IMG/VR virus record: IMGVR_UViG_2933348407_000001
Coordinates: 1-64,000 of that record
Length of the DNA: 64,000 nt
Strand: one strand, 5' to 3'
From: a virus
Taxonomy: Duplodnaviria > Caudoviricetes
The notes under the pieces are model-generated. The model worked only from the letters and a program-made list of their open reading frames with translations. It was not told the DNA's origin and made no database searches. Each line of letters opens with the position of its first letter. Positions within the stretch are counted from its first letter, which is position 1. This document shows positions 1,293-31,121 of the stretch, in pieces. Both the position numbers and the translations under genes were made by a program.

Positions 1293-1342
1293 GTTGGTGG
1301 AGAGCAGCCGCCGACAGTCCCGAACGAAGGAACGCCGCAATG
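1293..1342 (+). repeat. Conserved hairpin+RBS leader, copy 1
   Basis: GTTGGTGG-agagcag-CCGCCGAC then AGTCCCGAACGAAGGAAC..ATG; other copies at 25146, 26013, 31075. Confidence 0.8.
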
Positions 1343-2671
1343 AGGACCCTCCCGGCCAAGGTGCAGACCGCCGTCCACGTCGCCACGCTCGCCCGCAAGG
1401 CCGGTCTGCCCATCCCCGCCAAGGTCCTCCCGGTCCTCGAAGAGGCCGCCGCCCCCTGGCCCGCCGAGTGGCTCCTCGCCCCGCTCCCCGGCGACCCGAT
1501 CCGCGTCGTCGAGCTGTTCGCGGGCCCCGGCGGCTGGTCCGAGGGCATCTCCGCCGTCCTCGGCGTGGCCGTCGACTCCTGCGGCGTCGACATCTCCCCG
1601 GACGCCTGCGCCACCGCCCGCGCCGCCGGACACCGCCGCATCTGCGCCGACATCACCACCCTCGACCCCGAGCACATCGCGCTGCGCCACACCGCCGCCG
1701 TCATCATCAGCCCGCCGTGCCCCACCTTCTCCCCGGGCGGCAAGCTCTCCGGCCGGGAGCTGGGCAACATCCAGATCCTCGGCGACGCCATCGCCTACGT
1801 CGGCGAGACCGCCGGGTTCATCCCCATGGACTGGCACCACAGCGACTACGACGACGGCGAGTGCGAGTGCGACCCGGACGCCCCCGACGGCAAGGGATGC
1901 CACGGCGACGGCTTCGCCCCCCGCGCCGGCACCACCTGGGACGAGGTCCGCGAGATGGCTGCGGGCGTCAGTGACCCGCGCATCGCCCTCATGCTCGAGG
2001 TCGCCATCTGGCCGATCGCCCTGCAAGCCGCCGGTGCGCCAATCCGCTGGATGGCCATGGAGCAGTCCAGCAACCTGCCCGAGGAGATCATCAGCGACCT
2101 GACCATCGAGTTCCAGTGCGCCGAGTGGTTCTACACCAGCCACGAGATCAAGGAGGCCGCCGACTACGGCCTGCCGTCCCGCCGCAAGCGCGTCTACATG
2201 ATCGCCTCCCGCTCCTACTCCCCCACCGTCACCCGCTGCATCCGCCCGCTGCCCGCCACCACCATGGCGCAGGCCCTCGGCTGGCAGCCGGGGGAGCGCG
2301 TCAACACCCGCGGCAACCGCCCCACCGACCCGAAGACCGGCCGCGCCAAGGGCGGCAACGCGTTCTCCGCCGACGGCCCGTCCTGGTGCCTCACCGGCAA
2401 GTCCCGCACCTGGAAGCGCGAGAGCGACGGCTACCGCCTCACCGCGGCCGAGGCCGGGCTGCTCGTCGGATTCCGCCGCTCCTACCCGTGGCAGGGAAGC
2501 CGCTCCAGCGCCTTCCAGCAGGCCGCCGACGTCGTCTCCCCCGTCATGGCCGCGATCGTCCTCAGCGGCGTCCTGGGCGGCCTCGCCGAGGCCCTGGTGC
2601 GCGACTACCTCGCCCAGCTCTACGAGATGGACGACATGCTCAGCCCAGACGACTATGACCTAGTCAGCTAG
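1340..2671 (+). CDS. DNA (cytosine-5) methyltransferase
   Basis: Motif I VELFAGPGG, catalytic SPPCPTFS, motif VIII YGLPSRRKRVY, motif IX/X-like LTAAEAGLLVGF...QQAADVV; ATG 1340 after GAAGGA. Confidence 0.9.
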   Translation: MRTLPAKVQTAVHVATLARKAGLPIPAKVLPVLEEAAAPWPAEWLLAPLPGDPIRVVELFAGPGGWSEGISAVLGVAVDSCGVDISPDACATARAAGHRRICADITTLDPEHIALRHTAAVIISPPCPTFSPGGKLSGRELGNIQILGDAIAYVGETAGFIPMDWHHSDYDDGECECDPDAPDGKGCHGDGFAPRAGTTWDEVREMAAGVSDPRIALMLEVAIWPIALQAAGAPIRWMAMEQSSNLPEEIISDLTIEFQCAEWFYTSHEIKEAADYGLPSRRKRVYMIASRSYSPTVTRCIRPLPATTMAQALGWQPGERVNTRGNRPTDPKTGRAKGGNAFSADGPSWCLTGKSRTWKRESDGYRLTAAEAGLLVGFRRSYPWQGSRSSAFQQAADVVSPVMAAIVLSGVLGGLAEALVRDYLAQLYEMDDMLSPDDYDLVS

Positions 2672-3124
2672 GCCCCAGAACGCCCGGCCCCCTCCAGCGG
2701 AGGCTGGGCGTTGTAGTTCTGCACGTACAAACAGCAGTGCGGGGGTTTGACCCGCCAGGACTACTCCAGGAGGAGCCGCACCGCCTGGTCCAAATCTTCG
2801 GCATACGGAGAGTCGAGGAGCACCTGGCACACCGTTTGCCGGAGCCTCACATAGTTCTTCGACTCTTCCAAGTCGAGTTCGGCCACACGCTCGGCCTCCA
2901 GTGTGGGTTGCCGGGGTGAGCACAGGGATCGGCAGCTCCCACACGGGCTTGTCGATGCCCCGCTCGTCTTTGCCGTACGACACTCCATGGTGCGCAGCGC
3001 CGTGCGTGGTCACACCCTTGTCGGCCGGAATTCCCTCGGGCAAGCCGATTTCGCAGCACGCGACGCGAGGCGCACTCACGCGGCATGTATGGCAGCTGGG
3101 AATACCCCGGAGCTCAGATTGCCA

Positions 3125-4672
3125 TTATGCGATCTCGCGTGAAGAGCTCCGATAAAGAGTAAGGTAATCTTGGTGAAATCCACTGCCGTCGCCTGGGTCA
3201 CTGAAGAAGCTGGCGGACCATGATTCCGCACCAGGCGTCCAGCTGACGATATTGTAAGAGAGCGGCTTTCCCCCTATTCCGAGTGATGTACCGCACCCAA
3301 CAGCCGTTATTTCCATGGGGGGCACGCGTCCTGGCCTGACGATTTCGGCGCGATGTCTGGCTACGTGTTTGTGTCCATGCAGAATGAGTGATGTACGGCG
3401 AGCTGCGCACCACGATAGGAACCGATCCGAATCCTCCATCTGAATGTATCGCTCGTTTCCTACGAAGAGCCGCTTGCGACCCCTTTGAACGGGTAGCTCC
3501 TCCGGTGCATACGGGAATGGATGATGATGGAGGACTGCGATTCGTTCGTAATTGTTGAGCTCTTCCCTTCGGCCCAGTTGAATCTGAAGTTCTGTGGCAA
3601 CTTCCCGTAGTTGCGAGTCTGACATTCCCCCGCGCGCCCAGTTTCCTTTCTCAGAGGAGTTGAAACAGAGGAACGTGCATAGTAGGTCGTCATCGACGAC
3701 TACTCCCGGACCCCACTTCATGTTGGCTAGCTGTCGGTATTCCTCACCTATTCGCCCTAGGTTGTTGCCGAATGCCCGCTGATCGTGGTTGCCTGGGACG
3801 ATGACGGGGTCCTTTGCGTTCCAGTTCCTGAGCGAGGTCAAGAATCGATAGAACGCCGCATAGTCATCCGATCGCGGGTTGTCGAAGAGGTCTCCGGATA
3901 TGACTACCCTGTCGAAGTCATTCTTTCTGTCCAGCAGGCACCTCTCCAAGTATGGTTCCTTTTTCAGGGCATCGCGGCTGCCGAAATGCAGGTCACTGAG
4001 ATGCAAAATGCGACTGCGTCGGCAATCGGGGGTTTGCCGATTGTAGTCGCTCATTATTTGCTCCAGCTTTGCAGGGGTGGAGTCAAGCTGTTCGACAAGC
4101 TGACGGAAGAGGGGTTCTGCATCTCGAACCGGAGCAAACGCTGATTCTCCTGTTTTGAGCCAGAAGAGCACCCCGGGCAAATTTTCAGGGTGGCTGGCGA
4201 TTTGTTGCACTGGGGGGATGGGGTCGAAAAATTCCAAGCTTCCTTGCCCCATTCCGCCGTGCGGCATAAGAATGAGTGCGTTGTGTTCGGTCGTATAGGC
4301 GGCGTGCCGAAAGAAGGCGTTTACTCGGTCGTAACTCTCGTGATCTCGACTCGCTACAAGAGCATACAGTTCAAAGTTCTTGAAAACTCGGCGCAAATCT
4401 GCAAGCGCCTCCTTGATCAGAGGCGGACTCAAGAACTCCTGCCAACTTTCTCCGCGCAGTCTTCGATCGAGGCTCCGGCTTGATTCACCTGCGACGGCTG
4501 ATACCCTATCGACCCAAAAAGGTTTACTTGATATCAGGGAGTACGTGTCATGTTCCAACGCGCCCAGGAATCGAACCAAATCCCCCGCCCTCATCCGAGG
4601 AGGTTCGTCGGATATAGGGCGCGTAAGGTAAGCCGCGATGTTGGCGTCGCGAAGCTCGAATAGCCAGCCCAT
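3125..4672 (-). CDS. Calcineurin-like metallophosphoesterase with uncharacterised N-terminal domain (possible defence gene)
   Basis: HLSDLHFG, ISGDL, PGNHD, LHHHP, LHGHKH motifs; lower GC than flanks. Confidence 0.85.
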   Translation of the reverse strand: MGWLFELRDANIAAYLTRPISDEPPRMRAGDLVRFLGALEHDTYSLISSKPFWVDRVSAVAGESSRSLDRRLRGESWQEFLSPPLIKEALADLRRVFKNFELYALVASRDHESYDRVNAFFRHAAYTTEHNALILMPHGGMGQGSLEFFDPIPPVQQIASHPENLPGVLFWLKTGESAFAPVRDAEPLFRQLVEQLDSTPAKLEQIMSDYNRQTPDCRRSRILHLSDLHFGSRDALKKEPYLERCLLDRKNDFDRVVISGDLFDNPRSDDYAAFYRFLTSLRNWNAKDPVIVPGNHDQRAFGNNLGRIGEEYRQLANMKWGPGVVVDDDLLCTFLCFNSSEKGNWARGGMSDSQLREVATELQIQLGRREELNNYERIAVLHHHPFPYAPEELPVQRGRKRLFVGNERYIQMEDSDRFLSWCAARRTSLILHGHKHVARHRAEIVRPGRVPPMEITAVGCGTSLGIGGKPLSYNIVSWTPGAESWSASFFSDPGDGSGFHQDYLTLYRSSSREIA

Positions 4673-5243
4673 TTGCAGTGCCCCTTGGTTTTAGGTAACA
4701 GCTACAGTCCACGGGTCAATGCGCGGTGTGACCTGACGAATCAAGCTTAGTTCTGCACATGTCGCTTGTCCTGTTGAAGTCGTTCGAGAATCAATATTTG
4801 ATCCGCCGCATCTTGGGGGCGCGCGAAAACAGCGAAACCCCCGCGCTCCGCGAGGGAGCCGACCTTCGTCATCGTCGCGTTTCTTATGTTCCTGGCGGGC
4901 CTGCTGCTCGCTGCGTCCAAGCTCGGTGACGACTCCTCCGGCGACACGGACCCGACGCCGTCCAACTCCCCGTCGGCCCCGGGCCGACCGCGCCCGCCGA
5001 CTGCTCGCCCAGCACCCGTCCACAAGCAGCCCGACGTCCGTGCCAATGCCGGCCTCGACAACCGTCCGGCCGCGGCCGCCGTCGGCGTCACGGGCTCCGC
5101 CATCTATCAGCGACGCCGAGTTCGCCAAGGCCATGGACGCGGCACGGGCCGCCGCTCGTTAGGGGAGATCGAACGGAACGTGATGGCACGCCCGCATCAC
5201 CGGGACAGCGACTGCCACGGGATCCGTACGCGAACGCCTTCGA

Positions 5244-8613: not shown

Positions 8614-8648
8614 AAACCCGCCGCGGCAGAGTGTCACGCGCGCCTGAT

Positions 8649-8679
8649 CGCGACGTAAGCCTCCTCGGCCCCCCATGGT
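8649..8679 (+). promoter_or_regulatory. Element-specific promoter motif, copy 1
   Basis: CGCGAC-gtaagcctcctcggccccc(19)-CATGGT. Confidence 0.65.
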
Positions 8680-8756
8680 CCTTCCTCGCTCCAGCCGTCC
8701 TCCCGCGGCCGCCGTTCCTGGCCGGTCCGACGAGCCGGGGCAGGACGGACGGACCT

Positions 8757-10238
8757 GTGGCGGCAACGAACCTCGCCCCCGCCGGGCAGGAAGCCCTGAT
8801 ACCTGTGGAGGAGCTGACGGGCCCCGAGCCGGTCGTCCACTGCGCGGACGCCCTCGACCACCTTCGGGCCCTCCCCGACGCCTCGGTGGACGCGATCGTG
8901 ACCGATCCGCCGTACGAGCTGGGCTTCCTTGGGAAGGCGTGGGACGCCTCCGGCATCGCCTACAGCGTGGGCATGTGGGCGGAGTGCCTGCGCGTCCTCA
9001 AGCCGGGCGGGCACCTGGCCGCGTTCGGCGCGACCCGCACCTACCACCGCATGGCCGTGGCCGTCGAGGACGCCGGATTCGAGATCCGTGACTCCCTGCA
9101 CTGGCTGTACGGCACCGGCTTCCCCAAGGGACAGGACGTCGGGAAGCTGATCGACCGGCGCCGCGACGACCACCCCGCCCGCCGCCGCTTCACCGCCGAG
9201 TTCGCCGCGCTCCGCGACTCCGTCGGCTGGACGAACCCGCAGATCGACGCCCTGTTCGGCTTCAACGGCATGGCACAGCACTGGACGACACAGAGCAAGA
9301 CCGCCGCCGTCCCGACCGTCGAGCAGTGGGAGCAGTTGAAGGCGGAGATGGGGTTCGAGGCCCCGATCAGCGTCGAGGACCTGGTGCACGAGCTGAACGG
9401 GCGGAAGAACGCGCCCGGGGAGGCGTGGGAGGACCGGGAGGTCATCGGCAAGGGGCACCGAGCCCGGGGCGGTTCCGGGGTGTTCCCGCAGCTCCAGTCC
9501 GACACGTTCGACGTGACCGCACCGGCGACCGTCGAGGCCGCCCGCTGGGACGGCTGGAACACCGCCCTCAAGCCCGGCCATGAGCCGATCGTCCTGGCGC
9601 GGAAGCCGCTCGAGGGCACGGTCGCCTCCAACGTCCTGGCGCACGGCACCGGCGCGATGAATACCGCGGCGTGCAAGACCCCGCCCGGCGACGCCGAGGG
9701 GCGTTGGCCGACCAACGTGCTGCTGTCGCACGCGTGGGCCGTCGACGATGTGGGATGGATCGTTGACGGTTGCGCGGACGGCTGCGCGGAGGGGTGCCCG
9801 GTCGCCGAGCTGGACGGCCAGTCGGGGCGGCTCACCTCCGGGGCGAACCCGCGGCGCCGAGGGTCGGACAAGTTCCGCGACGTGTACGGCGACTTCAAGG
9901 GCCAGACCGCGTGCAAGCCGGTCCGGGGCGCGGACTCCGGCGGCGCCTCCCGCTTCTACCCGGTGTTCCGCTACCAGGCCAAGGCCCCCACCAGTGAGCG
10001 GCCGCGCCTCCCGGACGGCACCGTGCACCCCACGGTGAAGCCGGTCGCGCTCATGCGCTGGTTGGTCCGGCTGCTCACCGCGCCCGGCGGGATCGTCCTG
10101 GACCCGTTCGCCGGTACCGGCACGACACTCGAGGCCGCCCGCCTGGAGGGCTTCGACTCCATGGGCGTGGAGGCCAAGGCCGAGTACGCCGAGCTGTGCC
10201 GCCTCCGGCTGCGCCGCGAGACCGTGAGGAGCAACTGA
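8757..10238 (+). CDS. DNA methyltransferase, N4-C/N6-A beta class, with HTH-like insertion
   Basis: IVTDPPY near N-terminus; HPTVKP and LDPFAGTGTT at C-terminus; insert FAALRDSVGWTNPQIDALFG..AQHW. Confidence 0.9.
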   Translation: MAATNLAPAGQEALIPVEELTGPEPVVHCADALDHLRALPDASVDAIVTDPPYELGFLGKAWDASGIAYSVGMWAECLRVLKPGGHLAAFGATRTYHRMAVAVEDAGFEIRDSLHWLYGTGFPKGQDVGKLIDRRRDDHPARRRFTAEFAALRDSVGWTNPQIDALFGFNGMAQHWTTQSKTAAVPTVEQWEQLKAEMGFEAPISVEDLVHELNGRKNAPGEAWEDREVIGKGHRARGGSGVFPQLQSDTFDVTAPATVEAARWDGWNTALKPGHEPIVLARKPLEGTVASNVLAHGTGAMNTAACKTPPGDAEGRWPTNVLLSHAWAVDDVGWIVDGCADGCAEGCPVAELDGQSGRLTSGANPRRRGSDKFRDVYGDFKGQTACKPVRGADSGGASRFYPVFRYQAKAPTSERPRLPDGTVHPTVKPVALMRWLVRLLTAPGGIVLDPFAGTGTTLEAARLEGFDSMGVEAKAEYAELCRLRLRRETVRSN

Positions 10239-10278
10239 TGCGCATGACCGGCTTCGACTCCATGCGCCTGCCCGGGGC

Positions 10279-14508: not shown

Positions 14509-14515
14509 CCCAGAC

Positions 14516-17616: not shown

Positions 17617-20600
17617 GTGCGAAGCGCGTTGAGCGGGACCACGACGACGGTGCACGACGTTCTCAGGGCGATCCGTGACGGCTCCACCGGGAACCGGGAC
17701 CGGGGGACCCGCTTCGAGGAGTTCATGGTCCAGTACCTGAGCACCGATCCGCAGTGGACCGAGCAGTTCAGCCGTGTGTGGATGTGGGCCGACTGGCCGG
17801 GCGCCGAGCACGACAAACGGGACACAGGTATCGACCTGGTCGCGCAGGACCGGGAGACCGGCGGCTTCTGTGCCATCCAGTGCAAGTTCTACGAGCCGCA
17901 GCACACGATCCACAAGGAGGACATCGACTCCTTCTTCACGGCCTCTGGCAAGGGCGCCTTCACCCGCCGGATGATCATCTCCACCACGGACAAGTGGAGC
18001 GTCCACGCCGAGGAGGCGCTGGACGACCAGCAGATCCCCGTCACCCGGCTCGGCCTGTCGGACATCGCGAGCAGCCCCGTGGAGTGGCGCATGCCCACGC
18101 CGGGCCTGCACGTCGAGTTCGAGATGACGCTGCGGGAGAAGAAGAAGCCGCGCCCTCACCAGCGTGAGGCGATCGACGACGTCTTCGCCGGCTTCGCCGA
18201 GCATGAGCGCGGCAAGCTCATCATGGCCTGCGGAACCGGCAAGACCTTCACCAGCTTGAAGATCGCCGAGCGTCTCCAGCACGAGCGGGCGGAGGCAGGC
18301 CAGGGGGAGCACACCACTGTCCTGTTCCTGGTCCCCTCCATCGCGCTTCTTTCGCAGACACTGCGCGAGTGGTCGTACGAGGCTGAGGTGCCGCTGCGCG
18401 CCTTCGCCGTCTGCTCCGACACCAAGGTCGGCAAGCAGAAGGCCCAGGGTGACGACAAGGACATGTCCACCCATGACCTGGCCCTGCCCGCCACCACCGA
18501 CCCGAACCGACTGGTCGCGCAGATGGCGAGCGTGGAGGCGACGCCGGGCCTCACAGTGGTGTTCTCCACCTACCAGTCGATCGCGACCGTCTCGGCGGCC
18601 CAGCAGCAGGGCCTGCCCCGCTTCGATCTGATCCTGTGCGATGAAGCCCACCGCACCACGGGCGTCACCCTCTCCGGTCACGACGAGTCCGCGTTCGTCC
18701 GCGTCCACGACGACTCCTTCCTCGGCGCGGACCGCCGCCTGTACATGACCGCGACCCCGCGCGTGTACAACGACGACACCAAGCAGGACGCCAAGCACGC
18801 CGACGCGGCCGTCGCCTCAATGGACGACGAAGCGACATATGGCCCCGAGTTCCACCGGCTCGGCTTCGGCAAGGCCGTGGAGCAGGGGCTGCTCACCGAC
18901 TACAAGGTCCTCATCCTCACGATCGATGAGGGCGCCGTCGCCAAGACCCTCCAGGAGAGCCTGGCCGGCGCGGACGCCGAGCTGAGCCTCGACGACGCAG
19001 CGAAGATCATCGGCTGCTGGAACGCGATGGCCAAGCGCACCGGCACCTTCGCCGACGGCTCCGGTTTCGGCAAGGACGAGTCCCCGATGAAGCGGGCCGT
19101 CGCCTTCGCCCGCTCCATCGCCGACTCCAAGTCCGTCGCCGCCCGGTTCAACGAGGTCGTCGACGCCTACGACGACGCGGATGACGAGGTGCTGCACTGC
19201 GAGGTCGACCACGTCGACGGCACCTTCAACACCCTCCAGCGCAACCGGCTCCTCGACTGGCTCAAGCAGGACCCGGGCCCGGCCAACGCCCGCATCCTGT
19301 CCAACGCCCGCTGCCTGTCGGAGGGCGTCGACGTGCCAAGCCTGGACGCGGTGCTGTTCCTGCACCCGCGCAACTCCGTGGTGGACGTCGTCCAGTCCGT
19401 CGGCCGCGTCATGCGCACCGCCCCTGGCAAGAACTACGGCTACATCATCCTGCCTGTCGCCGTCCCCGCGGGTATGCCGCCGGAGAAGGCGCTCGCGGAC
19501 AACCAGCGCTTCAAGACTGTCTGGCAGGTCCTCCAGGCCTTGCGCGCCCACGACGACCGCTTCAACGCCACCGTCAACCAGATCGAGCTCAACAAGAAGA
19601 AGCCCGACACCATCGGCATCGGCCACATCGGCGCGGGCGACGAGACGGTCGGCGACCAGGACGGCTCCAGTACCGCCGACAGCGCCCAGGCCGCCAAGGA
19701 GAAGGAAGCTCAGAGCGCCCAGCACATCCAGGACGCCCTGTTCTCCGTGAGCGACTGGCGGGACGCCATCTACGCCCGCATCGTCGACAAGGTCGGCGAG
19801 CGCCACTACTGGGAGGACTGGGCCAAGGACATCGCCCAGATCGCCGACCGCCACGTCACCCGCATCAAGGCCGCCCTGGCGATCCCCGAGAAGCAGGCCG
19901 CCTTCGAAGAGTTCGTCGCCGAGCTGCGCGCGACGATAAATCCTGGTGTCTCCGACTCCGACGCCATCGACATGCTCGCGCAGCACATCATCACCAAGCC
20001 GGTCTTCGACGCGCTGTTCAAGGACTACGCCTTCACCGACCACAACCCGGTCTCCCAGGCGATGCAGCGCATGCTCGACGTCCTCGACGACACCGGCCTG
20101 GACGCCGAGACCAAGACCCTTCAGGACTTCTACCACTCGGTCCGTGTCCGCGCCGAAGGCATCGACAACCACGAAGGCCGGCAGCGCGTCATCGTCGAGC
20201 TGTACGACAAGTTCTTCAAGACCGCCCTGCCCAAGACCGCCGACGCTCTTGGCATCGTCTACACCCCGGTCGAGGTCGTCGACTTCATCCTCCGCTCCAC
20301 CGAACAGGCCCTCACCAAGCACCTCGGCCGCTCGCTGAGCGACGAGGGCGTCCACATCATCGACCCCTTCACCGGCACCGGCACATTCCCCGTTCGCCTC
20401 CTCCAGTCTGGCCTCATCCAGCCCGAGGCCCTCGCCCGCAAGTACGCCCAGGAGCTGCACGCCAACGAGATCGTGCTGCTCGCGTACTACATCGCGGCCA
20501 TCAACATTGAGGCGGCGTACGCGGACCTGACCGGCCGGCAGGACACCTACTCTCCCTTCGAGGGCATCGTCCTGACCGACACCTTCCAGCTCGCCGAGGG

Positions 20601-22518
20601 CGGCGTGGCCAAGCTCGACGGCATGGAGGTACTGGAGGGGAACAGCGAGCGGGCGAGGAAGCAGCGCAAGCAGCCCGTCAAGGTCGTGATCGGCAACCCG
20701 CCCTACTCGATGGGGCAGGAGAGCATGAACGACAACAACCAGAACCTCAAATACGAGGTGCTGGACGGTCGAATCGCTGAAACGTATGTAGCTCGGTCGG
20801 CAGCGGGCAACAGGAGTAGGCTGTACGACTCCTATATTCGCGCCATCCGTTGGGCCTCGGATCGCATCGAGAGTGAAGGCGTCGTGGCGTTCGTCTCCAA
20901 TGGCGGATATATCGACAGTAACGCAGCTGACGGAATGCGTAAATCCCTCATCGGAGAGTTTGATGCAATCTACTGCTACAACTTGCGCGGCAACCAACGC
21001 ACCGCCGGTGAGCAGTCCCGGAAGGAAGGCGGCAAGATCTTCGGCTCGGGTAGTCGGAACACCGTCGCTGTCCTGATCCTCGTCAAGGGCAGCCAGACCG
21101 GGACTACCGGCACGGGGTGCGCGCTCTACTACCGTGATATTGGTGACTACCTCACCCGTGAACAGAAGCTCAGCATCCTCAGCACTCAGAGCCTGGACGC
21201 CGTGGCGTGGGAACAGGTCACCCCGAACGCCGAGGGCGACTGGATCAACCAGCGGGACGAAAGCTACGCGACCTTCCAGGGCATCGGCGACAAAGACAAG
21301 GCCCTCGCCGGTCGGTCCGTTTTCGCGCTCTACTCGAATGGCCTGGACACCTCTCGTGACGCTTGGGTGTACAACTTCTCCGAGGAGAAGGTCCGCACCA
21401 ACATGGAGTCGATGATCGACTTCTACAACGATCAAGTGCAGGGCTTCCGTGACTATTGCGCAACCCATGGGCTGATTGATCCCAGCGCAAAGGACGTGGA
21501 ACAGTGGATTGACACGGATTCAAGGCGAATTAGTTGGAACCGTTCCGATAAGGCAAGGCTCGCGAAGGGGAGGGAGTACGAATTTGACTCCGCATGCCTT
21601 GTTACTTCATGCTATCGCCCCTTTGCTAAGCAGCACGTCTACTTCAACTCGCTGCTCAATAACACGACTTACCAGTTGCCTAAGATTTTCCCAACGGCAG
21701 AGCATGAGAACTACGGTTTCTACAACGTCGGGAGCGGTTCTACCGTGCCCTTCTCCGTCTTGATGTTGGACACCCTCCCGAATTACCACGTCACGGGCGC
21801 AGGCAGCGGGGGTGTGTTCTTCCCTCGCTACACCTACCGCGAGCTTGCTGTCGAGGGCGGCTTCGACTTCGGTGAAGACGAAGGCTACGAGCGCGTTGAC
21901 AACATCACCGACGCCGTCCTCGCGGACTACCGCGACGCCTGCAAGGACCTGTCCATCACGAAGGATGACATCTTCTACTACACCTACGCGCTCCTCCACT
22001 CTCAGGAGTACCGCGACCGCTTCGCCGCCGACCTCAAGAAAACCCTCCCCCGTATCCCCAAGGTGCGCGACTTCCACAGCTTCGCCGAGGCCGGCCGCAA
22101 GCTCGCCGACCTGCACCTCAACTACGAGCAGGCCGAGCCCTACAAGGGCATCGTCGAGACGCCGACCGGCGACATCTCGGCGACCCCGCCGAGCGAGCTG
22201 TACCGCGTCGCCAAGATGAAGATCCCGAAGGTGAAGGGGCAGGCCGACCGGTCCACGATCATCTACAACAACCGGATCAAGCTGACCAACATCCCGGAGG
22301 AGGCGTACCGGTACCAGCTCGGCGCCCGTTCCGCGATCGAGTGGATCATCGACCGCTACCAGGTCAAGGTCGACAAGGCTTCGGAGATCGTCAACGACCC
22401 CAACGACTGGTCCGACGACCCGCGCTACATCATCGACCTGCTCAAGCGAATCGTGACCGTGAGCCTGGAGACCATGAAGATCGTGGATGCACTGCCTGCC
22501 CTGGACATCCTGGAATAG
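17617..22518 (+). CDS. Type ISP restriction-modification enzyme (Mrr-like nuclease, SF2 helicase, N6 MTase, TRD; LlaBIII-like)
   Basis: DTGIDLVA..IQCK; MACGTGKT; DEAHRT; LSEGVDVP; QSVGRVMR; DPFTGTG; VIGNPPY; 1633 aa. Confidence 0.92.
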   Translation: MRSALSGTTTTVHDVLRAIRDGSTGNRDRGTRFEEFMVQYLSTDPQWTEQFSRVWMWADWPGAEHDKRDTGIDLVAQDRETGGFCAIQCKFYEPQHTIHKEDIDSFFTASGKGAFTRRMIISTTDKWSVHAEEALDDQQIPVTRLGLSDIASSPVEWRMPTPGLHVEFEMTLREKKKPRPHQREAIDDVFAGFAEHERGKLIMACGTGKTFTSLKIAERLQHERAEAGQGEHTTVLFLVPSIALLSQTLREWSYEAEVPLRAFAVCSDTKVGKQKAQGDDKDMSTHDLALPATTDPNRLVAQMASVEATPGLTVVFSTYQSIATVSAAQQQGLPRFDLILCDEAHRTTGVTLSGHDESAFVRVHDDSFLGADRRLYMTATPRVYNDDTKQDAKHADAAVASMDDEATYGPEFHRLGFGKAVEQGLLTDYKVLILTIDEGAVAKTLQESLAGADAELSLDDAAKIIGCWNAMAKRTGTFADGSGFGKDESPMKRAVAFARSIADSKSVAARFNEVVDAYDDADDEVLHCEVDHVDGTFNTLQRNRLLDWLKQDPGPANARILSNARCLSEGVDVPSLDAVLFLHPRNSVVDVVQSVGRVMRTAPGKNYGYIILPVAVPAGMPPEKALADNQRFKTVWQVLQALRAHDDRFNATVNQIELNKKKPDTIGIGHIGAGDETVGDQDGSSTADSAQAAKEKEAQSAQHIQDALFSVSDWRDAIYARIVDKVGERHYWEDWAKDIAQIADRHVTRIKAALAIPEKQAAFEEFVAELRATINPGVSDSDAIDMLAQHIITKPVFDALFKDYAFTDHNPVSQAMQRMLDVLDDTGLDAETKTLQDFYHSVRVRAEGIDNHEGRQRVIVELYDKFFKTALPKTADALGIVYTPVEVVDFILRSTEQALTKHLGRSLSDEGVHIIDPFTGTGTFPVRLLQSGLIQPEALARKYAQELHANEIVLLAYYIAAINIEAAYADLTGRQDTYSPFEGIVLTDTFQLAEGGVAKLDGMEVLEGNSERARKQRKQPVKVVIGNPPYSMGQESMNDNNQNLKYEVLDGRIAETYVARSAAGNRSRLYDSYIRAIRWASDRIESEGVVAFVSNGGYIDSNAADGMRKSLIGEFDAIYCYNLRGNQRTAGEQSRKEGGKIFGSGSRNTVAVLILVKGSQTGTTGTGCALYYRDIGDYLTREQKLSILSTQSLDAVAWEQVTPNAEGDWINQRDESYATFQGIGDKDKALAGRSVFALYSNGLDTSRDAWVYNFSEEKVRTNMESMIDFYNDQVQGFRDYCATHGLIDPSAKDVEQWIDTDSRRISWNRSDKARLAKGREYEFDSACLVTSCYRPFAKQHVYFNSLLNNTTYQLPKIFPTAEHENYGFYNVGSGSTVPFSVLMLDTLPNYHVTGAGSGGVFFPRYTYRELAVEGGFDFGEDEGYERVDNITDAVLADYRDACKDLSITKDDIFYYTYALLHSQEYRDRFAADLKKTLPRIPKVRDFHSFAEAGRKLADLHLNYEQAEPYKGIVETPTGDISATPPSELYRVAKMKIPKVKGQADRSTIIYNNRIKLTNIPEEAYRYQLGARSAIEWIIDRYQVKVDKASEIVNDPNDWSDDPRYIIDLLKRIVTVSLETMKIVDALPALDILE

Positions 22519-22603
22519 CAACCACCCTGGCACGGGTACGCGCTCACCGAGGCGTATCCGTGCGGCCCGTCAGCGCTGGGAAGCCGCCCGCTGTTTGTCC
22601 AGA

Positions 22604-25040: not shown

Positions 25041-25080
25041 GCGGGACCCCCTAAGTGCAGTTCTTTAAAGTCCCGCCAAG

Positions 25081-25123
25081 GTTACCGACAACAATCACAG
25101 TTGTTGTCGGCTACTGATCAGTA
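25081..25123. repeat. Inverted repeat (lox/operator-like) plus 12-bp palindrome
   Basis: CCGACAACAA-tcacag-TTGTTGTCGG; TACTGATCAGTA at 25112-25123. Confidence 0.65.
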
Positions 25124-25145
25124 ACCCCGTATCGTGTTTCCCGAA

Positions 25146-25192
25146 GGGCGGAGAGCACCGCCCCGAGTCCCGAACGAAGGAGCACCGCCATG
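25146..25192 (+). repeat. Conserved hairpin+RBS leader, copy 2
   Basis: GGGCGG-agagca-CCGCCC cgAGTCCCGAACGAAGGAGC..ATG. Confidence 0.8.
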
Positions 25193-25381
25193 GCGGGCTG
25201 GATCAGCACGGGCCAGCAGAAGCGCGACCACGAGGGCCTGCGGAACGTCTGCGCGGCCGACGGACACCCGGGCACCGCCGAGGACCCGCTGGTGAAGACG
25301 ACGGACGGATGGCGCGTCCACCTCTCCGACACCACCAACCCGAACAGCGGCTTCTACGGCCAGCAGCAGACGGAGGGGTGA
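25190..25381 (+). CDS. Small hypothetical protein
   Basis: 63 aa, AAGGAG RBS, high GC3. Confidence 0.7.
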   Translation: MAGWISTGQQKRDHEGLRNVCAADGHPGTAEDPLVKTTDGWRVHLSDTTNPNSGFYGQQQTEG

Positions 25382-25385
25382 ACTC

Positions 25386-25655
25386 ATGCTCTCCATTGCG
25401 AAGTTGAAGCTCCTCGCGTACGCCTTCGCCCTCCTGGCCCTCGCGTACCCCGCCCTCGTCCCGCCCGTCCTCGGCACGCTCGGAGTCGTGGTCGCCGCGG
25501 TGATCGACACCCTCGGATGGGTCCTGACGCACCTGTCGCTCGCCCTCACGATCGCGGCTGGCCTGCTCCTGGTCCGCGTCTTCCCCGGCGTTCCGCGGTG
25601 GTTGGGCCGCGCGTTAGTCGCTTCGGTCGCTTCCGTGGCCCCCGTCAAGGCGTGA
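25386..25655 (+). CDS. Small membrane protein
   Basis: Almost entirely hydrophobic 89 aa; GGAGGGG RBS. Confidence 0.7.
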   Translation: MLSIAKLKLLAYAFALLALAYPALVPPVLGTLGVVVAAVIDTLGWVLTHLSLALTIAAGLLLVRVFPGVPRWLGRALVASVASVAPVKA

Positions 25656-25732
25656 CAACCCGCCCGTTCGAGTTGTTCGATTCTTCGCTCAGAACGATTC
25701 TCCGCTCAGCCCTCCCGAGGAGCACATCCCGC

Positions 25733-25963
25733 ATGTCCGTCTCAGAAACGCCAGAGCCATCAGCCGAAGAGCTCGTGAAGGGACTGTTCGAGGAGACCGG
25801 ACTTCGCCAGTCCCTCGTTCCCACCTACACCGCCGCGGTGCTCGCCCTGCGCGACCGCGAGAAAGCCGCGGAACTCCGCGCAGCCGGTTTCGGCGCCGCC
25901 GCTGATCTCATCGAGCCGGACTCTGCCGTCATTGCCGAGGCGTTCGGCCCCGAGGACCAGTAG
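25733..25963 (+). CDS. Small hypothetical protein
   Basis: GAGGAG RBS; helical acidic sequence. Confidence 0.6.
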   Translation: MSVSETPEPSAEELVKGLFEETGLRQSLVPTYTAAVLALRDREKAAELRAAGFGAAADLIEPDSAVIAEAFGPEDQ

Positions 25964-26012
25964 CCCCAACTCTCGTGCACCGCAAGACCGTTCGGCGCCC
26001 GGCATGGCGCTA

Positions 26013-26058
26013 TCCGGCGGAGAGCACCGCCGGAGTCCCGAAGGAAGGAACCGCGATG
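26013..26058 (+). repeat. Conserved hairpin+RBS leader, copy 3
   Basis: TCCGGCGG-agagca-CCGCCGGA GTCCCGAAGGAAGGAAC..ATG. Confidence 0.8.
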
Positions 26059-26967
26059 TACCGTCGCCACGTCGTCACCATCCTGCTCCCCCCGCCCGAG
26101 CCGGAGCCGGAGTACGAGCTGTACCAAGAGCTGAGGCACGACGCCGAGTTGCGGAGCCGCCCCCCGCTGGGACCGGACGACCTTCGGCGCATGACGGAGG
26201 TGTCCGCGCGCCGCGGCCGCGACTGGTGCACGGCCGTACTGGGACGGGGCTTCCCTGGGATCGACCGCGTCTCCAGCGTCGACGGCTGGATGCTGGTCGC
26301 CGCCGACGAGCTGAACCTCGACCCGCCGCTCCCCCGCCGGATCGTCGAGGAGCGGGAAGCCGTAGAGCAACGGCGCAAGACCGAAGCAACCCTGGCCGCA
26401 GTGAAGTTGGAGACGGAGAAGCGCCAGTGGGGCCTGCTGGTCGGCAGTGCGCCCGTCACTCTGACGGTGCACGAGAACACGCGGCACACGGGCCCGAATG
26501 GCTCCACCCGGCACGCCGTGCCCCCGGTCGATGTCGTCTCCGGGAAGGCGCGGAAGCATCCCGCAGGCAGGGGGCTGTGCGAGACGCCCGGCCGCGCTGA
26601 CCCGCTTCACCTGGGCGATGCGGTCGACCTCCCGCCCAACTGCGTGCGCTGCCTGGACTACGCGGCCAAGATCCGCGCCGCGGACGCTCCAGCCCCGCCG
26701 ACGGATGCCGAGGTGGCGCTGCTGCGGCTCATCTCCTCCGGCGTGGTCTTCACCTTCAGCGTCCGCGCAACCATCACGATCCGGGACACCAGCCAGCGCA
26801 GCCGCGCGGCCTGGGGACACCTGGGCCGGAAGGTCGACGTCGCCGTGCGGAAGCTGGAGAAGAAGGGCTGGGTGCTCCAGGCCCCGGAGTACAGCGCGAC
26901 GCAAAAGGGGGTCCGCGGCCACTGTTGGCGGCTGACCGAAGCCGGCACCGCTGCCCTGGAAGGCTGA
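26056..26967 (+). CDS. Hypothetical protein with C-terminal winged-helix-like segment
   Basis: High GC3; H..LC..CVRC; VDVAVRKLEKKGWV..WRLTEAGTAAL. Confidence 0.7.
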   Translation: MYRRHVVTILLPPPEPEPEYELYQELRHDAELRSRPPLGPDDLRRMTEVSARRGRDWCTAVLGRGFPGIDRVSSVDGWMLVAADELNLDPPLPRRIVEEREAVEQRRKTEATLAAVKLETEKRQWGLLVGSAPVTLTVHENTRHTGPNGSTRHAVPPVDVVSGKARKHPAGRGLCETPGRADPLHLGDAVDLPPNCVRCLDYAAKIRAADAPAPPTDAEVALLRLISSGVVFTFSVRATITIRDTSQRSRAAWGHLGRKVDVAVRKLEKKGWVLQAPEYSATQKGVRGHCWRLTEAGTAALEG

Positions 26968-26970
26968 CCA

Positions 26971-27830: not shown

Positions 27831-27849
27831 CCAGCGAAAACGGCGAAAC

Positions 27850-27878
27850 CGTAACGGGAACCGGTACTTCGACGTACA
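27850..27878 (+). promoter_or_regulatory. ECF-type promoter, copy 3
   Basis: CGTAAC-gggaaccggtacttcga(17)-CGTACA. Confidence 0.5.
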
Positions 27879-27927
27879 GGAACTGAGGGCTGGCCCGCCC
27901 TCGCCCTAACCCAGGAGATGCCCCTCC

Positions 27928-28569
27928 ATGAGCACCAGACACCCCGTGTCCCTCCAGATCTACGACCGCAACGGCGTGCCCGAGCACCCGCCGGTCTGGG
28001 ACCGGGCGCGCTCCGTCAACACGGTCATCGCCGCGTTCGCCCGCGGCGGCACCCTCCTCGACCGCGACGGCGTCGACGAGCGCCTCGCCGAGATCGCCGA
28101 CAAGGCCGCGTGCTCGCTCCTCCGCGACCGCTGGAAAGACGACTTCCCGATCGCCGCGTACGGCGAACTGCTCTGCACCATCGCCGCCCTGCGCGGTCTC
28201 CTCGGCTACTCCCCCACGCCCACGGCCGTTGAGGTCTTCGACTGGGCCCGCCAGCAGAAGCAGAAGGCCGCCGAGGCGATCGACGGCCCCGTGCAGGACT
28301 TCGTCATCCAGTTCCTCAACGGGCCCTACTCCGGAGTGATCCTGACGTTCCCGGGCGAGACGCAGGGGCCAGGCGGAAGGCCGGGCCTATCCCTCACCGT
28401 CCCGATCGCCTGGGGGGACGACAGCGAACCCGGCCGCGGTGAAGCCCGGTACGCACGGACCGACGAGCCCACCAGCGAAGGGCTGTGGCTCTACCGGCTC
28501 GCCGAGGACGTTCCCGACGGCGCTCGCCCGCACATCACCGTCCCGGACCCGAAGGATGGCCGCGCGTGA
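27928..28569 (+). CDS. Hypothetical protein
   Basis: AGGAG RBS, high GC3, first gene of a coupled array. Confidence 0.7.
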   Translation: MSTRHPVSLQIYDRNGVPEHPPVWDRARSVNTVIAAFARGGTLLDRDGVDERLAEIADKAACSLLRDRWKDDFPIAAYGELLCTIAALRGLLGYSPTPTAVEVFDWARQQKQKAAEAIDGPVQDFVIQFLNGPYSGVILTFPGETQGPGGRPGLSLTVPIAWGDDSEPGRGEARYARTDEPTSEGLWLYRLAEDVPDGARPHITVPDPKDGRA

Positions 28570-28807
28570 TACCCCTGCTTACCGCCGTCATCCCGTCCCC
28601 GGCCGCCGACGCCGCCCACGACGCCGCGCACGCGACCGCCGCCCGCTTCCGGCAGGGCGCCTACTCCGTGCCGTGCCCGGAGTGCCACGTCCCGGCCGGT
28701 GTGCTGTGCCTCGCCCGACGCATCGTCCACACCGCCCGCCGGAACGCGTACCGGCAGAACCCGAGACCATCGGCCTCGTGCCCCTCCTCGTGGCGCGTGT
28801 CCGATGA
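28566..28807 (+). CDS. Small zinc-finger protein, probable frameshift near 28760
   Basis: VPCPECHVPAGVLC..HTARR; GTGA overlap at start; alternative frame ends at the ATGA overlap 28804-28807. Confidence 0.45.
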
Positions 28808-29064
28808 GCGAAACCACCGCGGCCGAAGCCGCCCGAAGGGCCGCCACTTGGGCGCACTGCGCCGAGGACGCGAACAAGTACGCGCACGAGCATGAGCAGC
28901 AGGCGAGGGAGCACGCGGTCCAGCGGGACAGTGGCCAGGCCGCCGCCTACACGTCGCGGGCCGAGGAGTGGGTGCGGCTCCGCGGCACGGCTGTGGACAT
29001 GGCGAACATGTGGGCCAACGTTGTGGGTGCCCTGCAACTCGCTGAGCTGGGTGAGCACTCGTGA
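28804..29064 (+). CDS. Hypothetical helical protein
   Basis: Coupled overlaps at both ends. Confidence 0.6.
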   Translation: MSETTAAEAARRAATWAHCAEDANKYAHEHEQQAREHAVQRDSGQAAAYTSRAEEWVRLRGTAVDMANMWANVVGALQLAELGEHS

Positions 29065-29726
29065 CGGCCCTCGCGGTCGAGGTCCCGGCCGCCCGGCCTG
29101 AGTGGGACGGCCGCCTGGTCGTGCGCGCCGCGGGCCGCCCGCTCCTGCACATCGGCGCCGAGGGCGTCACCGCGCCGCCGGTGCCGATGTTCACCGTGGC
29201 GCTGGAGTGCGCCCCGGACGCCGAACAAGCCCCCGGAGTACGGCCGTGGGACGGACCGGTCACCGAAGCGAGTATCTGCCCAGCCTGCCTGCGCTCCCTA
29301 CGCGGTGAACCGGAGCCCGAGGCGCCCCGCCTCGTCCGCGCCAGCGTCGCCGAGGCACTGCCCCGGCCTGTTCCCGAACCAGCCCGCGACGGCCGCCACC
29401 TCCACGCTGTTCCCGACCTCCCGGTGTACGCCGAGGCGCCTCTTCCCGCCGAGCACGGCGGCCGCCCGATCACCTGGTCCCGTTGGACGACCGCGCCCGT
29501 CATCACCCACCACGATTCCTCGTGCGAGTGGTGCGGGGACCCGGGCCCCGGCGAGATGGCCGGCGGCCGCCAGGGCAATCCGATGTCGCGGACCGACCCC
29601 TTGCGCCGCTACGTCGCCTACCGCTGCACCGCATGCCAGGAGATGACCGCGTACGAGCAGGTCGGCAGCGAGCTCAACACCATCGCACACCACAAGTCGC
29701 GCGCCCCGAAGGACTGCAACCGATGA
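29061..29726 (+). CDS. Hypothetical zinc-binding protein
   Basis: CPAC, CEWC, CTAC; GTGA overlap. Confidence 0.65.
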   Translation: MTALAVEVPAARPEWDGRLVVRAAGRPLLHIGAEGVTAPPVPMFTVALECAPDAEQAPGVRPWDGPVTEASICPACLRSLRGEPEPEAPRLVRASVAEALPRPVPEPARDGRHLHAVPDLPVYAEAPLPAEHGGRPITWSRWTTAPVITHHDSSCEWCGDPGPGEMAGGRQGNPMSRTDPLRRYVAYRCTACQEMTAYEQVGSELNTIAHHKSRAPKDCNR

Positions 29727-29986
29727 GCACCACCCTCACCCCCGTTCGCGACACCAGCGCCCTCGAGCAGCGCGTCGCCCTGATCGCATGCGGTCAGCGT
29801 CCCGGTAAGACGCAGGCGTGCGCCACCCACCGGGGCAAGGGCGCCGCCCTGCTGAACATCGCCTCCACGGGCGCCGCGGACGCCCTCGCAGCGGCGATCT
29901 GCGGAACCGGGAAGGGGCCCGCCTGCCACGACTGCAAGGACAAGGCCGCGGAGATCATCAGCACCTACAACGAGGAGATCCGGTGA
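29723..29986 (+). CDS. Small Cys-containing hypothetical protein
   Basis: ATGA overlap; internal duplication IACG..ACATH / ICG..ACHDC. Confidence 0.6.
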   Translation: MSTTLTPVRDTSALEQRVALIACGQRPGKTQACATHRGKGAALLNIASTGAADALAAAICGTGKGPACHDCKDKAAEIISTYNEEIR

Positions 29987-30441
29987 CAACGGCCGTCGCG
30001 CTCCAGGATGCAGAGATCTTCGACGCGGACGGCACGCTCGTCGACGTCGCACCCATCCGACACCTGATCAAGGGCCCTGGCGGATTCACCGCCTTCCACC
30101 GGGCCAGCATCAACTGCCAACCGCACCAGTACGTCGTCGACGCCGCTCGCGAAGCCCACGCCAGAGGTCGGGCCGTACTCATCGTGACCGGCCGCGATCG
30201 ACGCTGGGAACGCCTGACGGCCATGTGGCTCGCCCTGCATGGTGTGCCGTCGGACGGGCTGTGGATGCGCGGCCGCGGCGACTACCGCCCGGACTACGTC
30301 ATCAAGCGGGAGCTGCTGCGCTCCATCCGCCGGAAGTACAACGTGGTCCGAGCCTGGGACGACAACCCGAACGTCATCCGTCTGTGGCAAGAGGAGAACA
30401 TCCCCGTCGAGGTGGTCCCCGGTTGGGTGGACGAGCAGTGA
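29983..30441 (+). CDS. HAD-family phosphatase (polynucleotide kinase 3'-phosphatase-like)
   Basis: FDADGTL, VTGR, MR..DYRPD..IK, WDD motifs. Confidence 0.85.
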   Translation: MTTAVALQDAEIFDADGTLVDVAPIRHLIKGPGGFTAFHRASINCQPHQYVVDAAREAHARGRAVLIVTGRDRRWERLTAMWLALHGVPSDGLWMRGRGDYRPDYVIKRELLRSIRRKYNVVRAWDDNPNVIRLWQEENIPVEVVPGWVDEQ

Positions 30442-30683
30442 GCCGGCCAGGGAACCACGAGATCACCGCCGCTGATCTGGCGAGGGGGGAGCTGTCCTAC
30501 GCGCTCCCCCTTGAAGGCTGGAGCGGCATGACGCTGCACTGCCAGGTCGACGCCATCGGCCCGTCCGAGCTGCACCCCGACCTGGTGAAGCTCGAGGTGT
30601 CGTTCCCGCCGGTCGCACGAGACCTGACGGTCCGACGGCTCGTCGACGACCAAGACCCCGTCTCTCCATCTCGCCGAGATTGA
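30438..30683 (+). CDS. Small hypothetical protein
   Basis: GTGA overlap, high GC3. Confidence 0.55.
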   Translation: MSRPGNHEITAADLARGELSYALPLEGWSGMTLHCQVDAIGPSELHPDLVKLEVSFPPVARDLTVRRLVDDQDPVSPSRRD

Positions 30684-30720
30684 CGAATCTCGGCGAGATC
30701 TTTCAATCTCCCCGAAAGAT
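30668..30720. repeat. Nested perfect inverted repeats
   Basis: ATCTCGCCGAGATT-gacg-AATCTCGGCGAGAT; then GATCTTTC..GAAAGATC. Confidence 0.7.
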
Positions 30721-30737
30721 CGGCACAATGAGGGCTG

Positions 30738-31019
30738 TTGCTGATCACGATGGGAGTACCGATGCCGGCCGAGACCGACTCGCCACGAGTCCTACGGCTC
30801 ACGTTCGAGTTCCACGTCCCGCGCGGCCTGCGGGTCAACATCCGGAACGACCGCCGTTTCACCGCCGTTGAGGCCCTGGTCGCCGCGGTGCAGAGCCTCG
30901 CTGGGCAGGTCTTCCCATGGGCCAGCAAGATGACGGTCCGGCACGAGTGGTCCTACGCCTGGTGGGACGAGACCCTGGAACGCGAGTTGCCGACCACGGA
31001 CAAGAACACACCGAAGTAG
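30738..31019 (+). CDS. Small hypothetical protein
   Basis: High GC3; start may be 30750 or 30762. Confidence 0.6.
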   Translation: MLITMGVPMPAETDSPRVLRLTFEFHVPRGLRVNIRNDRRFTAVEALVAAVQSLAGQVFPWASKMTVRHEWSYAWWDETLERELPTTDKNTPK

Positions 31020-31074
31020 CCGCAGCCGCGCGGCAGATCCAGAACCGAACACCTGGCGTCATGGCCAGACCCCA

Positions 31075-31121
31075 CCGGCGGAGAGCACCGCCGGAGTCCC
31101 GAACGAAGGAACACCGCGATG
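31075..31121 (+). repeat. Conserved hairpin+RBS leader, copy 4
   Basis: CCGGCGG-agagca-CCGCCGG AGTCCCGAACGAAGGAAC..ATG, opening a 20-codon ORF (31119-31181). Confidence 0.8.

Follow-up and report, generated by a model that had tools for sequence, protein, structure and literature searches.

The 64,000-nucleotide window analyzed here covers the opening 64 kb of a 108,523-bp IMG/VR record classed as a provirus (IMGVR_UViG_2933348407_000001; G000 in coordinates beyond the window), and our subject is a short leader that recurs in it before unrelated genes. The first copy precedes the gene for a C5 cytosine DNA methylase (1340–2671, + strand, 443 aa; PF00145, E 2.9e-16). The second serves a 63-aa protein, the first gene of a rightward operon (25190–25381, +), and the third a 303-aa protein (26056–26967, +), neither of which belongs to a Pfam family. 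The fourth copy serves the translation start of a 20-codon upstream open reading frame (uORF; MPSRSPAAASRRPSALTLSR; 31119–31181, +), whose stop codon lies 6 nt before the GTG start of a TraB/FtsK-like DNA translocase gene (31188–33194, +, 668 aa; PF01580). The N-terminus of this uORF (MPSR...) is kept in relatives and in the Streptomyces phage Gilgamesh, and translation of TraB is probably coupled to it. The uORF counterpart in Gilgamesh, between gp11 and gp10, is unannotated. A preliminary description of this DNA had reported a four-copy leader in front of unrelated genes, and both parts of that claim are borne out by a scan for the conserved 16-mer, by reading of the hairpins and by a covariance model.

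The 16-mer AGTCCCGAACGAAGGA is found exactly at 1316, 25166 and 31095 and with one mismatch at 26034, always on the + strand. When up to three mismatches are allowed, 0.80 matches are expected by chance, and four or more matches appeared in 1 of 100 shuffles; the occurrence of three exact 16-mers is far beyond chance. In each window copy, a G+C-rich hairpin with the loop AGAGCA (AGAGCAG in copy 1) is followed by a tail of the AGTCCCGAACGAAGGA type and then by ATG, the gap between GAAGGA and ATG being 8, 8, 6 and 8 nt in copies 1 to 4, respectively. The near-invariant loop and 16-mer, the differing yet paired stems and the G–U pairs of copy 1, all noted in the preliminary description, are present in the sequence.

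The hairpin of copy 1 (1292–1316, +) reads TGTTGGTGG / AGAGCAG / CCGCCGACA and forms 9 bp, including two U·G pairs, with a minimum free energy of −13.1 kcal/mol. Its single-stranded tail (1317–1331, +), GTCCCGAACGAAGGA, carries the Shine–Dalgarno sequence GAAGGA and leads to the ATG at 1340; the covariance model matches the whole unit at 1292–1331 (+) with 40.9 bits. Copy 2 consists of the hairpin GGGCGG / AGAGCA / CCGCCC (25146–25163, +; model match 25143–25181, 50.2 bits) and the tail AGTCCCGAACGAAGGA (25166–25181, +), with ATG at 25190. In copy 3, the hairpin TCCGGCGG / AGAGCA / CCGCCGGA (26013–26034, +; −16.5 kcal/mol; model match 26012–26049, 64.7 bits) is followed by GTCCCGAAGGAAGGA, a G variant of the tail (26035–26049, +), and by ATG at 26056. 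This G variant is common to the orthologous leaders in all four lineages discussed below. Copy 4 pairs CCGGCGG with CCGCCGG around AGAGCA (31075–31094, +; model match 31073–31110, 61.7 bits) and continues with the tail AGTCCCGAACGAAGGA (31095–31110, +) to the ATG at 31119.

The covariance model, a check proposed in the preliminary description, was seeded with 20 relatives and recovers all four window copies. The count of four is correct for the window, but the whole element holds five strong copies, not four, plus decayed ones. The strong copies score 40.4–64.7 bits, and the rest of the 108.5-kb record reaches at most 16.6 bits. The fifth strong copy (G000 95611–95648, −), with the stem GCGCGGG/CCCGCGC and the loop CAGAGCAA, serves an AAA_24-type ATPase of 566 aa encoded downstream on the − strand. 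All five point the same way as the next gene. Decayed copies are located at G000 ~97400 (−) and ~92300 (+), and a hairpin without the tail lies at ~100500 (−), where a promoter-like motif is present; its Gilgamesh ortholog (~79700, −) is likewise without the tail. Past this hairpin, at G000 ~100465–100515 (−), the motif and the AGAGC(G/A)A hairpin are followed by a non-coding stretch of ~50 nt, ACCTGGGCCTAGGTGTAACAAA..., nearly identical in Gilgamesh (~79650–79700, −), which may represent either a long leader or a small RNA. Two matches to a looser pattern, at 42629 and 42702, both fall within a family-2 glycosyltransferase gene and were rejected as chance.

The element resembles Gilgamesh (MN234216, 129 kb, isolated on S. 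lividans), with 79% DNA identity in the TraB region and 67.9% identity between TraB and Gilgamesh gp10 over 100% of the length. The two share a gene order comprising an FtsK-like translocase, a portal–MuF fusion, a giant ORF, capsid and tape measure, and further an AAA-ATPase, ParB, amidase, SSB and a sigma factor. Circular plasmids, CP108533.1 and CP109288.1 (126–130 kb), are also among its close relatives. Because of this shared gene order and the circular relatives, the element is a member of a clade of Streptomyces phage-plasmids with a TraB motor. Within this clade of roughly 110–130 kb elements, the leader module occurs about 5–17 times per genome, and its carriers include eight Streptomyces genomes, several IMG/VR proviruses, the two circular plasmids and the cultured phage Gilgamesh.

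These carriers emerged from several searches. A strict pattern, AGAGCA-N5-10-GTCCCGAANGAAGGA, gave 16 matches in four IMG/VR viral records, with eight and six of them in two ~120-kb records. Among the genomes of 185,579 species it gave 53 matches at 32 loci, in eight Streptomyces genomes plus one match in Corallococcus (L045), which has no stem and is due to chance. The Streptomyces genomes hold up to ~10 strict matches each, on contigs of ~100–200 kb or in one chromosomal region, and in the strict-pattern loci the covariance model finds 107 matches (77 distinct), some with loop or tail variants. Looser scans of the collections yielded many single matches on metagenome contigs, at about the level of a rough chance estimate, and only multi-copy records were counted as real. 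The tail sequence played no part in finding the two plasmids and Gilgamesh. In the plasmids, GGAGAGCA(A/C)C is matched exactly 15 and 11 times (the reversed control not at all), and there are ~16 and ~10 leader-like copies, with the tails (AG)CCCGAACGAAGGA and (AC/CC)CCCGAACGAAGGA. In Gilgamesh, the 15-mer tail is absent and the hairpin is present: 15 hairpins, 14 with the loop AGAGCA(A/G) and one with CGAGCAT, are followed by a purine-rich Shine–Dalgarno sequence and a start codon, in addition to the one hairpin-only copy. The tail there is instead ...ACCACGAAG-N-GAGGAAC..., and only two other AGAGCA-loop hairpins exist elsewhere in the genome. In a 10-Mb host chromosome, hairpin-compatible matches are concentrated in ~41 kb, with one or two elsewhere; we take this cluster to be an integrated element. 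Because the chromosomal matches cluster in this way, we conclude that the motif belongs to the element and not to the host.

The genes behind the leaders are diverse. Among 106 context-distinct copies, about 19 gene families could be told apart by their N-terminal peptides. They are non-structural and include DNA methylases, a DpdA-like gene, TraB, the replication ATPase and many small ORFs. The Gilgamesh leaders, all except one of which lie in the non-structural arms, precede among others a DNA methylase and a queuine-tRNA-ribosyltransferase-like gene. The start codon follows GAAGGA by 6–9 nt in 98 of the 106 copies.

The nature of the stem was addressed by covariation in two sets, one of 77 distinct sequences and a second of 34 matches that come from the two plasmids and Gilgamesh and had not contributed to the model. 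In the first set, 92.9% of stem cells are paired, compared with 67.0% after shuffling, and none of 500 shuffles reaches the observed value. Changes on both sides are seen at seven of the eight pairs, the covariation score is 0.530 versus 0.118, and sliding the 3′ partner as a control leaves at most 71% paired. The second set behaves similarly (91.6% paired versus 65.1% shuffled; 0/500), again with double changes at seven of eight pairs. Strong covariation, which the preliminary description had named as a check, is present in both sets. The counts come from model-fitted alignments of related sequences, which favors the structure. Nevertheless, the size of the effect and the occurrence of one stem position in the C–G, U–G and U–A states (GTTGGCGG/CCGCCAAC, GTTGGTGG/CCGCCAAC and GTTGGTGG/CCACCAAC) leave little doubt that the pairing is real. 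A plain MAFFT alignment was unsuitable for this analysis: RNAalifold missed the stem on it, the 3′ arm being misaligned, and a gap-free seed alignment with the covariance model was used instead.

The pairing also carries information on the strand that folds. Sense-strand G·U cells number 17 and 9 in the two sets, compared with 8 and 2 for A·C/C·A (26 versus 10 in total), which gives modest backing to folding of the sense strand; the counts ignore shared ancestry. The stem is 7–9 bp long, its arms are variable, and the loop, G-AGAGCA(A)-C, is nearly invariant. Variable arms around a fixed loop are the reverse of what a protein-bound palindromic DNA site shows. Because of this pattern, the strict orientation and the fusion to a Shine–Dalgarno sequence, we place the hairpin in the mRNA. 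Covariation in two sets, the G·U excess, the fixed orientation and the fixed start distance support the earlier suggestion that the leader is a cis-regulatory RNA folding as a single strand.

The loop is kept across lineages that are only 68% identical in TraB, with AGAGCG, CGAGCA, AGAGCTA and GTGAGCA as rare variants. The tail, CCCGAA(C/G)GAAGGA, is single-stranded, starts 0–6 nt after the hairpin and carries the Shine–Dalgarno sequence. In at least six gene families, the stems of orthologous leaders are the same or nearly so in the G000 type, both plasmids and Gilgamesh (for example GCCCCGG/CCGGGGC, GGGCGG/CCGCCC and TGTTGGCGG/CCGCCAACA). Since the stems are shared by gene orthology, the leaders predate these lineages. 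Conversely, the bases just 5′ of CCCGAA vary by lineage across all gene families. The prefix is GT in 80 of 101 G000-type copies, a count that is partly by construction and weakens the comparison, as these loci were fetched with a pattern demanding GTCCCGAA. It is AG in 8 of 14 copies of CP108533.1 (GT once), mostly AC or CC in CP109288.1 (GT in 1 of 12), and ACCACGAAG (ACCAC...) in Gilgamesh. We read this as co-evolution of the prefix with a trans-acting partner, which may be an RNA-binding factor or, in a rival reading taken up below, a DNA-binding repressor of the stoperator type. Co-evolution is preferred because gene conversion that homogenizes the tails should also have homogenized the stems 0–6 nt away, and it did not. 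An antisense RNA is not indicated as the partner, as the element has no second site complementary to AGTCCCGAACGAAGGA, and a complementary 9-mer at 94056 is no more than chance would give.

The promoter context differs among the copies. Upstream of copy 1 lies the promoter-like motif GAGTCTTATTGCTGTACTAT (1266–1285, +), whose −10-like hexamer TACTAT (1280–1285) ends 6 nt before the hairpin. Among the 106 copies, the motif CATTGCTGTACT, with at most two mismatches, lies 7–9 nt before the start of the model match in 30 and 21–44 nt upstream in 15 more. It takes the form (G)TCTCATTGCTGTACTAT in the lineage of the element and TTTCCnnTGGTGTACTAT in Gilgamesh, with the −10-like TACTAT or TACTGT in a conserved 18-mer. 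Three instances of GAGTCT(C/T)ATTGCTG(T/C)ACTAT occur in G000, at 1266–1285, 95676–95695 (+) and ~100531–100550 (−). About a third of the copies begin 6–8 nt past the −10-like motif. From these features we infer that the 18-mer is a promoter; with the −10-like hexamer ~6 nt before the stem, transcription of the 30 copies would start right at the hairpin base. The element encodes an ECF-type sigma factor (G000 105795–106463, −; Gilgamesh counterpart gp92), which may read this motif. A gene for an HATPase_c_2 anti-sigma-type, histidine-kinase-like ATPase (37338–37817), adjoining a gene of unknown function (36724–37817 region), may be linked to the sigma factor.

Upstream of copy 2 is a divergent control region. 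A perfect 12-bp palindrome, TACTGATCAGTA (25112–25123, +), occupies the place where a −35 element would be, and a −10-like TATCGT (TAnnnT; 25130–25135, +) lies 10 nt upstream of the leader; together they probably serve the rightward operon as operator and promoter. A second palindrome, CCGACAACAA-TCAC-AGTTGTTGTCGG (25085–25110), lies beside the first, and both are likely operators. The block ...AGTAAC..GTAGAGT... upstream of the orthologous leader is kept in relatives, in Gilgamesh and in CP108533.1. Copies 3 and 4 are intercistronic, and each comes after another conserved hairpin or palindrome. For copy 3 this is the hairpin GGCGCC-cggcat-GGCGCT (25994–26011, +), which lies directly upstream, past the stop codon of the preceding ORF, and recurs at the orthologous position in Gilgamesh and in the two plasmids. 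Consensus scans around copies 1–3 called no sigma-70-type promoters and no U-tailed terminators.

We propose that the leader is a transcribed sense-strand RNA element that places an early or plasmid-mode gene set under common post-transcriptional control, a reading to which we give about an even chance of being correct. The hairpin would form the 5′ end of the mRNA or lie very close to it. In roughly one copy out of three it is immediately preceded by a −10-like motif; in the others, a different structure or a site of processing would precede it. In this position it would shield the message from decay that depends on the 5′ end. The invariant loop would be a recognition handle for one conserved trans-acting factor, and the tail would serve as the landing site of the ribosome. 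Hairpin and tail together would thereby subject the gene set to common control of translation initiation, of mRNA lifetime, or of both. Transcription of the hairpin, its position at the 5′ end, the loop-binding factor and the direction of the effect are all parts of this proposal.

A more specific form of the proposal is possible, although we hold it tentatively and consider it on the unlikely side. One element-encoded factor, of an RNA-binding type that is not recognized, might read both the AGAGCA loop and the lineage-specific tail and thereby switch the translation or stability of early and plasmid-mode genes for DNA modification, TraB-mediated spread and replication. The tail variants would then define specificity classes that evolve in step with the factor, and the system would parallel repressor–stoperator immunity at the level of RNA.

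Several observations, besides the alignment bias and the pattern-dependent GT count mentioned above, weigh against the proposed leader RNA. In 61 of the 106 copies there is no recognized motif upstream, and the motif itself has no −35 element and is not called by a sigma-70 consensus scan. The excess of G·U over A·C is modest. A look-up of sequencing runs listed no RNA run with this sequence. The Shine–Dalgarno sequence pairs with 16S rRNA via AAGGA; for the other conserved segments, comparison with Streptomyces 16S rRNA gave no loop complement of 6 nt or more and only scattered 6-mers for the tail, so that the leader is not an extended rRNA-pairing enhancer. The predicted unpaired probability of the Shine–Dalgarno sequence is 0.46 in 98 leaders and 0.45 in 81 other genes, which is no gain. 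The spacing between hairpin and tail varies by 0–6 nt, which disfavors a single protein reading both as a rigid unit. Finally, a Pfam scan of 64 of the ~90 predicted proteins of the element found no known RNA-binding domain; the ~26 proteins outside the scan are mostly structural and include the giant ORF.

Some of these points are what would be expected if the leader acted in cis only, as a standard plug-in expression module that was copied from gene to gene, in which the 5′ stem-loop stabilizes or insulates the message and the tail is a good ribosome-binding site without any dedicated factor. The absence of an RNA-binding protein from the scanned set and the variable spacing agree with this explanation, as do the 30 of 106 copies whose hairpin begins at the predicted 5′ end and the ability of the leaders to recombine and move between genes. 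Hairpins at the 5′ end that stabilize mRNA are known, as in leaders of the ompA type and their Gram-positive equivalents, which act singly and need no particular loop. The present leader resembles them in having a stable hairpin a few nucleotides from the predicted 5′ end, followed by a ribosome-binding site. However, it has a fixed loop and a fixed tail and is repeated before many unrelated genes. A simple stabilizer would not require AGAGCA(A) to stay constant while stems diverge and TraB falls to ~68% identity. Nor would it require the CCCGAAC 5′ of the Shine–Dalgarno sequence to be fixed without pairing to 16S rRNA, or the tail prefix to change lineage-wide, and the accessibility of the Shine–Dalgarno sequence is not improved. 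We regard an action purely in cis as unlikely.

The lineage-wide change of the tail prefix could also be explained at the DNA level. A repressor of the element would bind the double-stranded tail GTCCCGAACGAAGGA and silence many units, in the manner of a stoperator, and the hairpin would be a separate, neighboring RNA feature. The stoperators of cluster A phages, which are mentioned in PMC3203893, are the model for this explanation. The motif is asymmetric, multi-copy, oriented with transcription and confined to non-structural regions, and its prefix variants resemble immunity specificities, all of which fits such an operator. On the other hand, the Shine–Dalgarno sequence is always inside the motif and keeps its distance to the start codon, which a DNA operator does not need, and the tail is joined to a covarying RNA hairpin. 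An operator of this kind appears improbable to us.

The fixed loop might instead mark a site for antitermination similar to nut/boxB, in which a loop-bound factor modifies RNA polymerase, or a processing site at which an endoribonuclease cuts the hairpin to give monocistronic messages. Small hairpins in which the loop and not the stem sequence matters are familiar from the MS2 coat, T4 RegA and gp43 operators and from the lambda N–boxB interaction, and the leader is like them in being a small hairpin with a conserved loop, placed close to where translation starts or following early promoters. The sequence-specific loop downstream of promoters and the position of the intercistronic copies 3 and 4 after another hairpin would suit either function. 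Unlike nut sites, which occur once or twice per early operon, the leader is present in 5–17 copies per genome, each fused to a Shine–Dalgarno sequence, and its loop is unlike the GNRA-type loops of boxB. There are no U-tailed terminators near the copies covered by the terminator scan, and the 64 scanned proteins include no antiterminator family and no N-, Q- or Cas6-like protein by Pfam. A stem of 7–9 bp is too short for RNase III, which counts against processing. The boxB/nut interpretation offered in the preliminary description thus fits neither the position nor the copy number, and we consider antitermination or processing decidedly improbable. To our knowledge, a regulon-wide leader of this form is undescribed for phage translational operators or boxB/nut sites.

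Another early suggestion was a hairpin promoter in single-stranded DNA. Such a promoter, or a different single-stranded structure used when the element enters a new cell, is highly improbable: a G·T-tolerant stem would fold in single-stranded DNA too, and the served genes include early anti-restriction-type functions such as methylases, but the hairpin follows a −10-like motif, as seen in 30 of 106 copies, and directly precedes a Shine–Dalgarno sequence, its stem is G+C-rich and has no promoter boxes of the Frpo type, it is also found in the cultured phage Gilgamesh, phage entry is double-stranded, and TraB-type conjugation in Streptomyces moves double-stranded DNA (PMC4447253).

The closest described relatives of the leader, in form, are repeats of other phages. 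The start-associated sequence (SAS) of cluster K mycobacteriophages is a 13-bp motif, GGGATAGGAGCCC, located 3–7 bp before start codons (PMC3203893); its function is given as unknown with a proposed role in translation, and about half of the copies have an inverted repeat just upstream. Like SAS as presented there, the leader is multi-copy, asymmetric and of a single orientation, with a Shine–Dalgarno core a few nucleotides before start codons, and it is limited to non-structural genes of an actinobacteriophage group whose host lacks the motif. Its sequence differs from GGGATAGGAGCCC, and its start distance is analogous. In the extended form (ESAS), 17-bp arms are conserved, the spacer is variable and departures are not compensatory, and the authors favored a DNA-binding protein (PMC3203893). 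Conversely, the arms of the leader vary with compensation around a fixed loop, which points to RNA.

A second comparison is with the PeSL cassettes of T4-type phages, which combine a consensus sigma-70 promoter with a stem-loop acting as an effective transcription terminator (PMC2839356). Both systems are repeated composite cassettes (promoter, stem-loop, Shine–Dalgarno sequence) before small accessory genes, and in both, recombination between copies deletes or moves genes, with one case found here. However, the hairpin of the leader is downstream of the −10-like motif, in the 5′ untranslated region, it has no U tract, and its loop is under selection. Moreover, neither a consensus promoter nor a terminator was called around copies 1–3.

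The case of recombination concerns two loci. In one (L037), the leader of one gene family is joined straight to the gene of the next family, whereas in the other (L020), two leaders ~610 nt apart flank a gene of ~89 aa. The difference is a deletion, or in reverse an insertion, with its junction inside the leaders. The L020 locus, a contig of Streptomyces sp. NPDC059850, contains a poly-G/poly-C run with masked N between the leaders (~1900–2150), which probably reflects poor assembly, so that the length of the interval is uncertain. We treat recombination as a consequence of the repeats and not as their primary function. The recombination-prone cassette of the preliminary description is accordingly retained as a side effect, seen in one case in which a gene between two leaders was removed, and set aside as the primary role.

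Besides the genes served by the leaders, the window carries cargo that includes an N6/N4 methylase, a Type ISP restriction enzyme, a metallophosphoesterase, an integrase and sugar-modifying enzymes. A block between copy 1 and the early operon contains the low-G+C metallophosphoesterase gene (3125–4672, −), the N6/N4 methylase (8631–10238) and a DUF5677 gene. The Type ISP restriction-modification enzyme in this block (17617–22518) is complete, with 1633 aa and the domains Mrr_cat_2, ResIII, coupler and Type_ISP_C. The giant ORF of 5680 aa follows the portal–MuF gene and runs from 50801 through the end of the window at 64000 to G000 67843; its Gilgamesh counterpart, gp48 (4625 aa), is annotated as hypothetical. 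Beyond it, a 69-aa ORF (G000 68826–69035, +) occupies the position of Gilgamesh gp51, which is annotated as "ribosome modulation factor"; the ORF has no Pfam match, and its resemblance to that factor was judged by eye.

The leader appears to be a common RNA control site without an earlier description. Rfam gave no match on the whole window at gathering thresholds, and at E ≤ 10 on 25100–26100 and 31000–31250 it gave two unrelated weak matches elsewhere and none on the leader, so that the novelty stands after the Rfam comparison proposed earlier. Literature searches on the motif strings, Gilgamesh and Streptomyces phage-plasmids, which did not cover supplements, found no description of the motif or of the phage clade. 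The leader would add to the known structured RNAs a motif absent from Rfam, with covariation that is unusually clean for its size and dozens of natural variants. As a compact and portable unit, it could serve as an expression part in Streptomyces. It also offers a tractable case for the role of the start-associated repeats of actinobacteriophages, open since the description of SAS, because Gilgamesh, which carries the motif, is a cultured phage. For the biology of the group, the leader would mark genes regulated together in a clade that has received little study, the ~125-kb phage-plasmids of Streptomyces with a virion, ParAB, integrases and a TraB conjugation motor.

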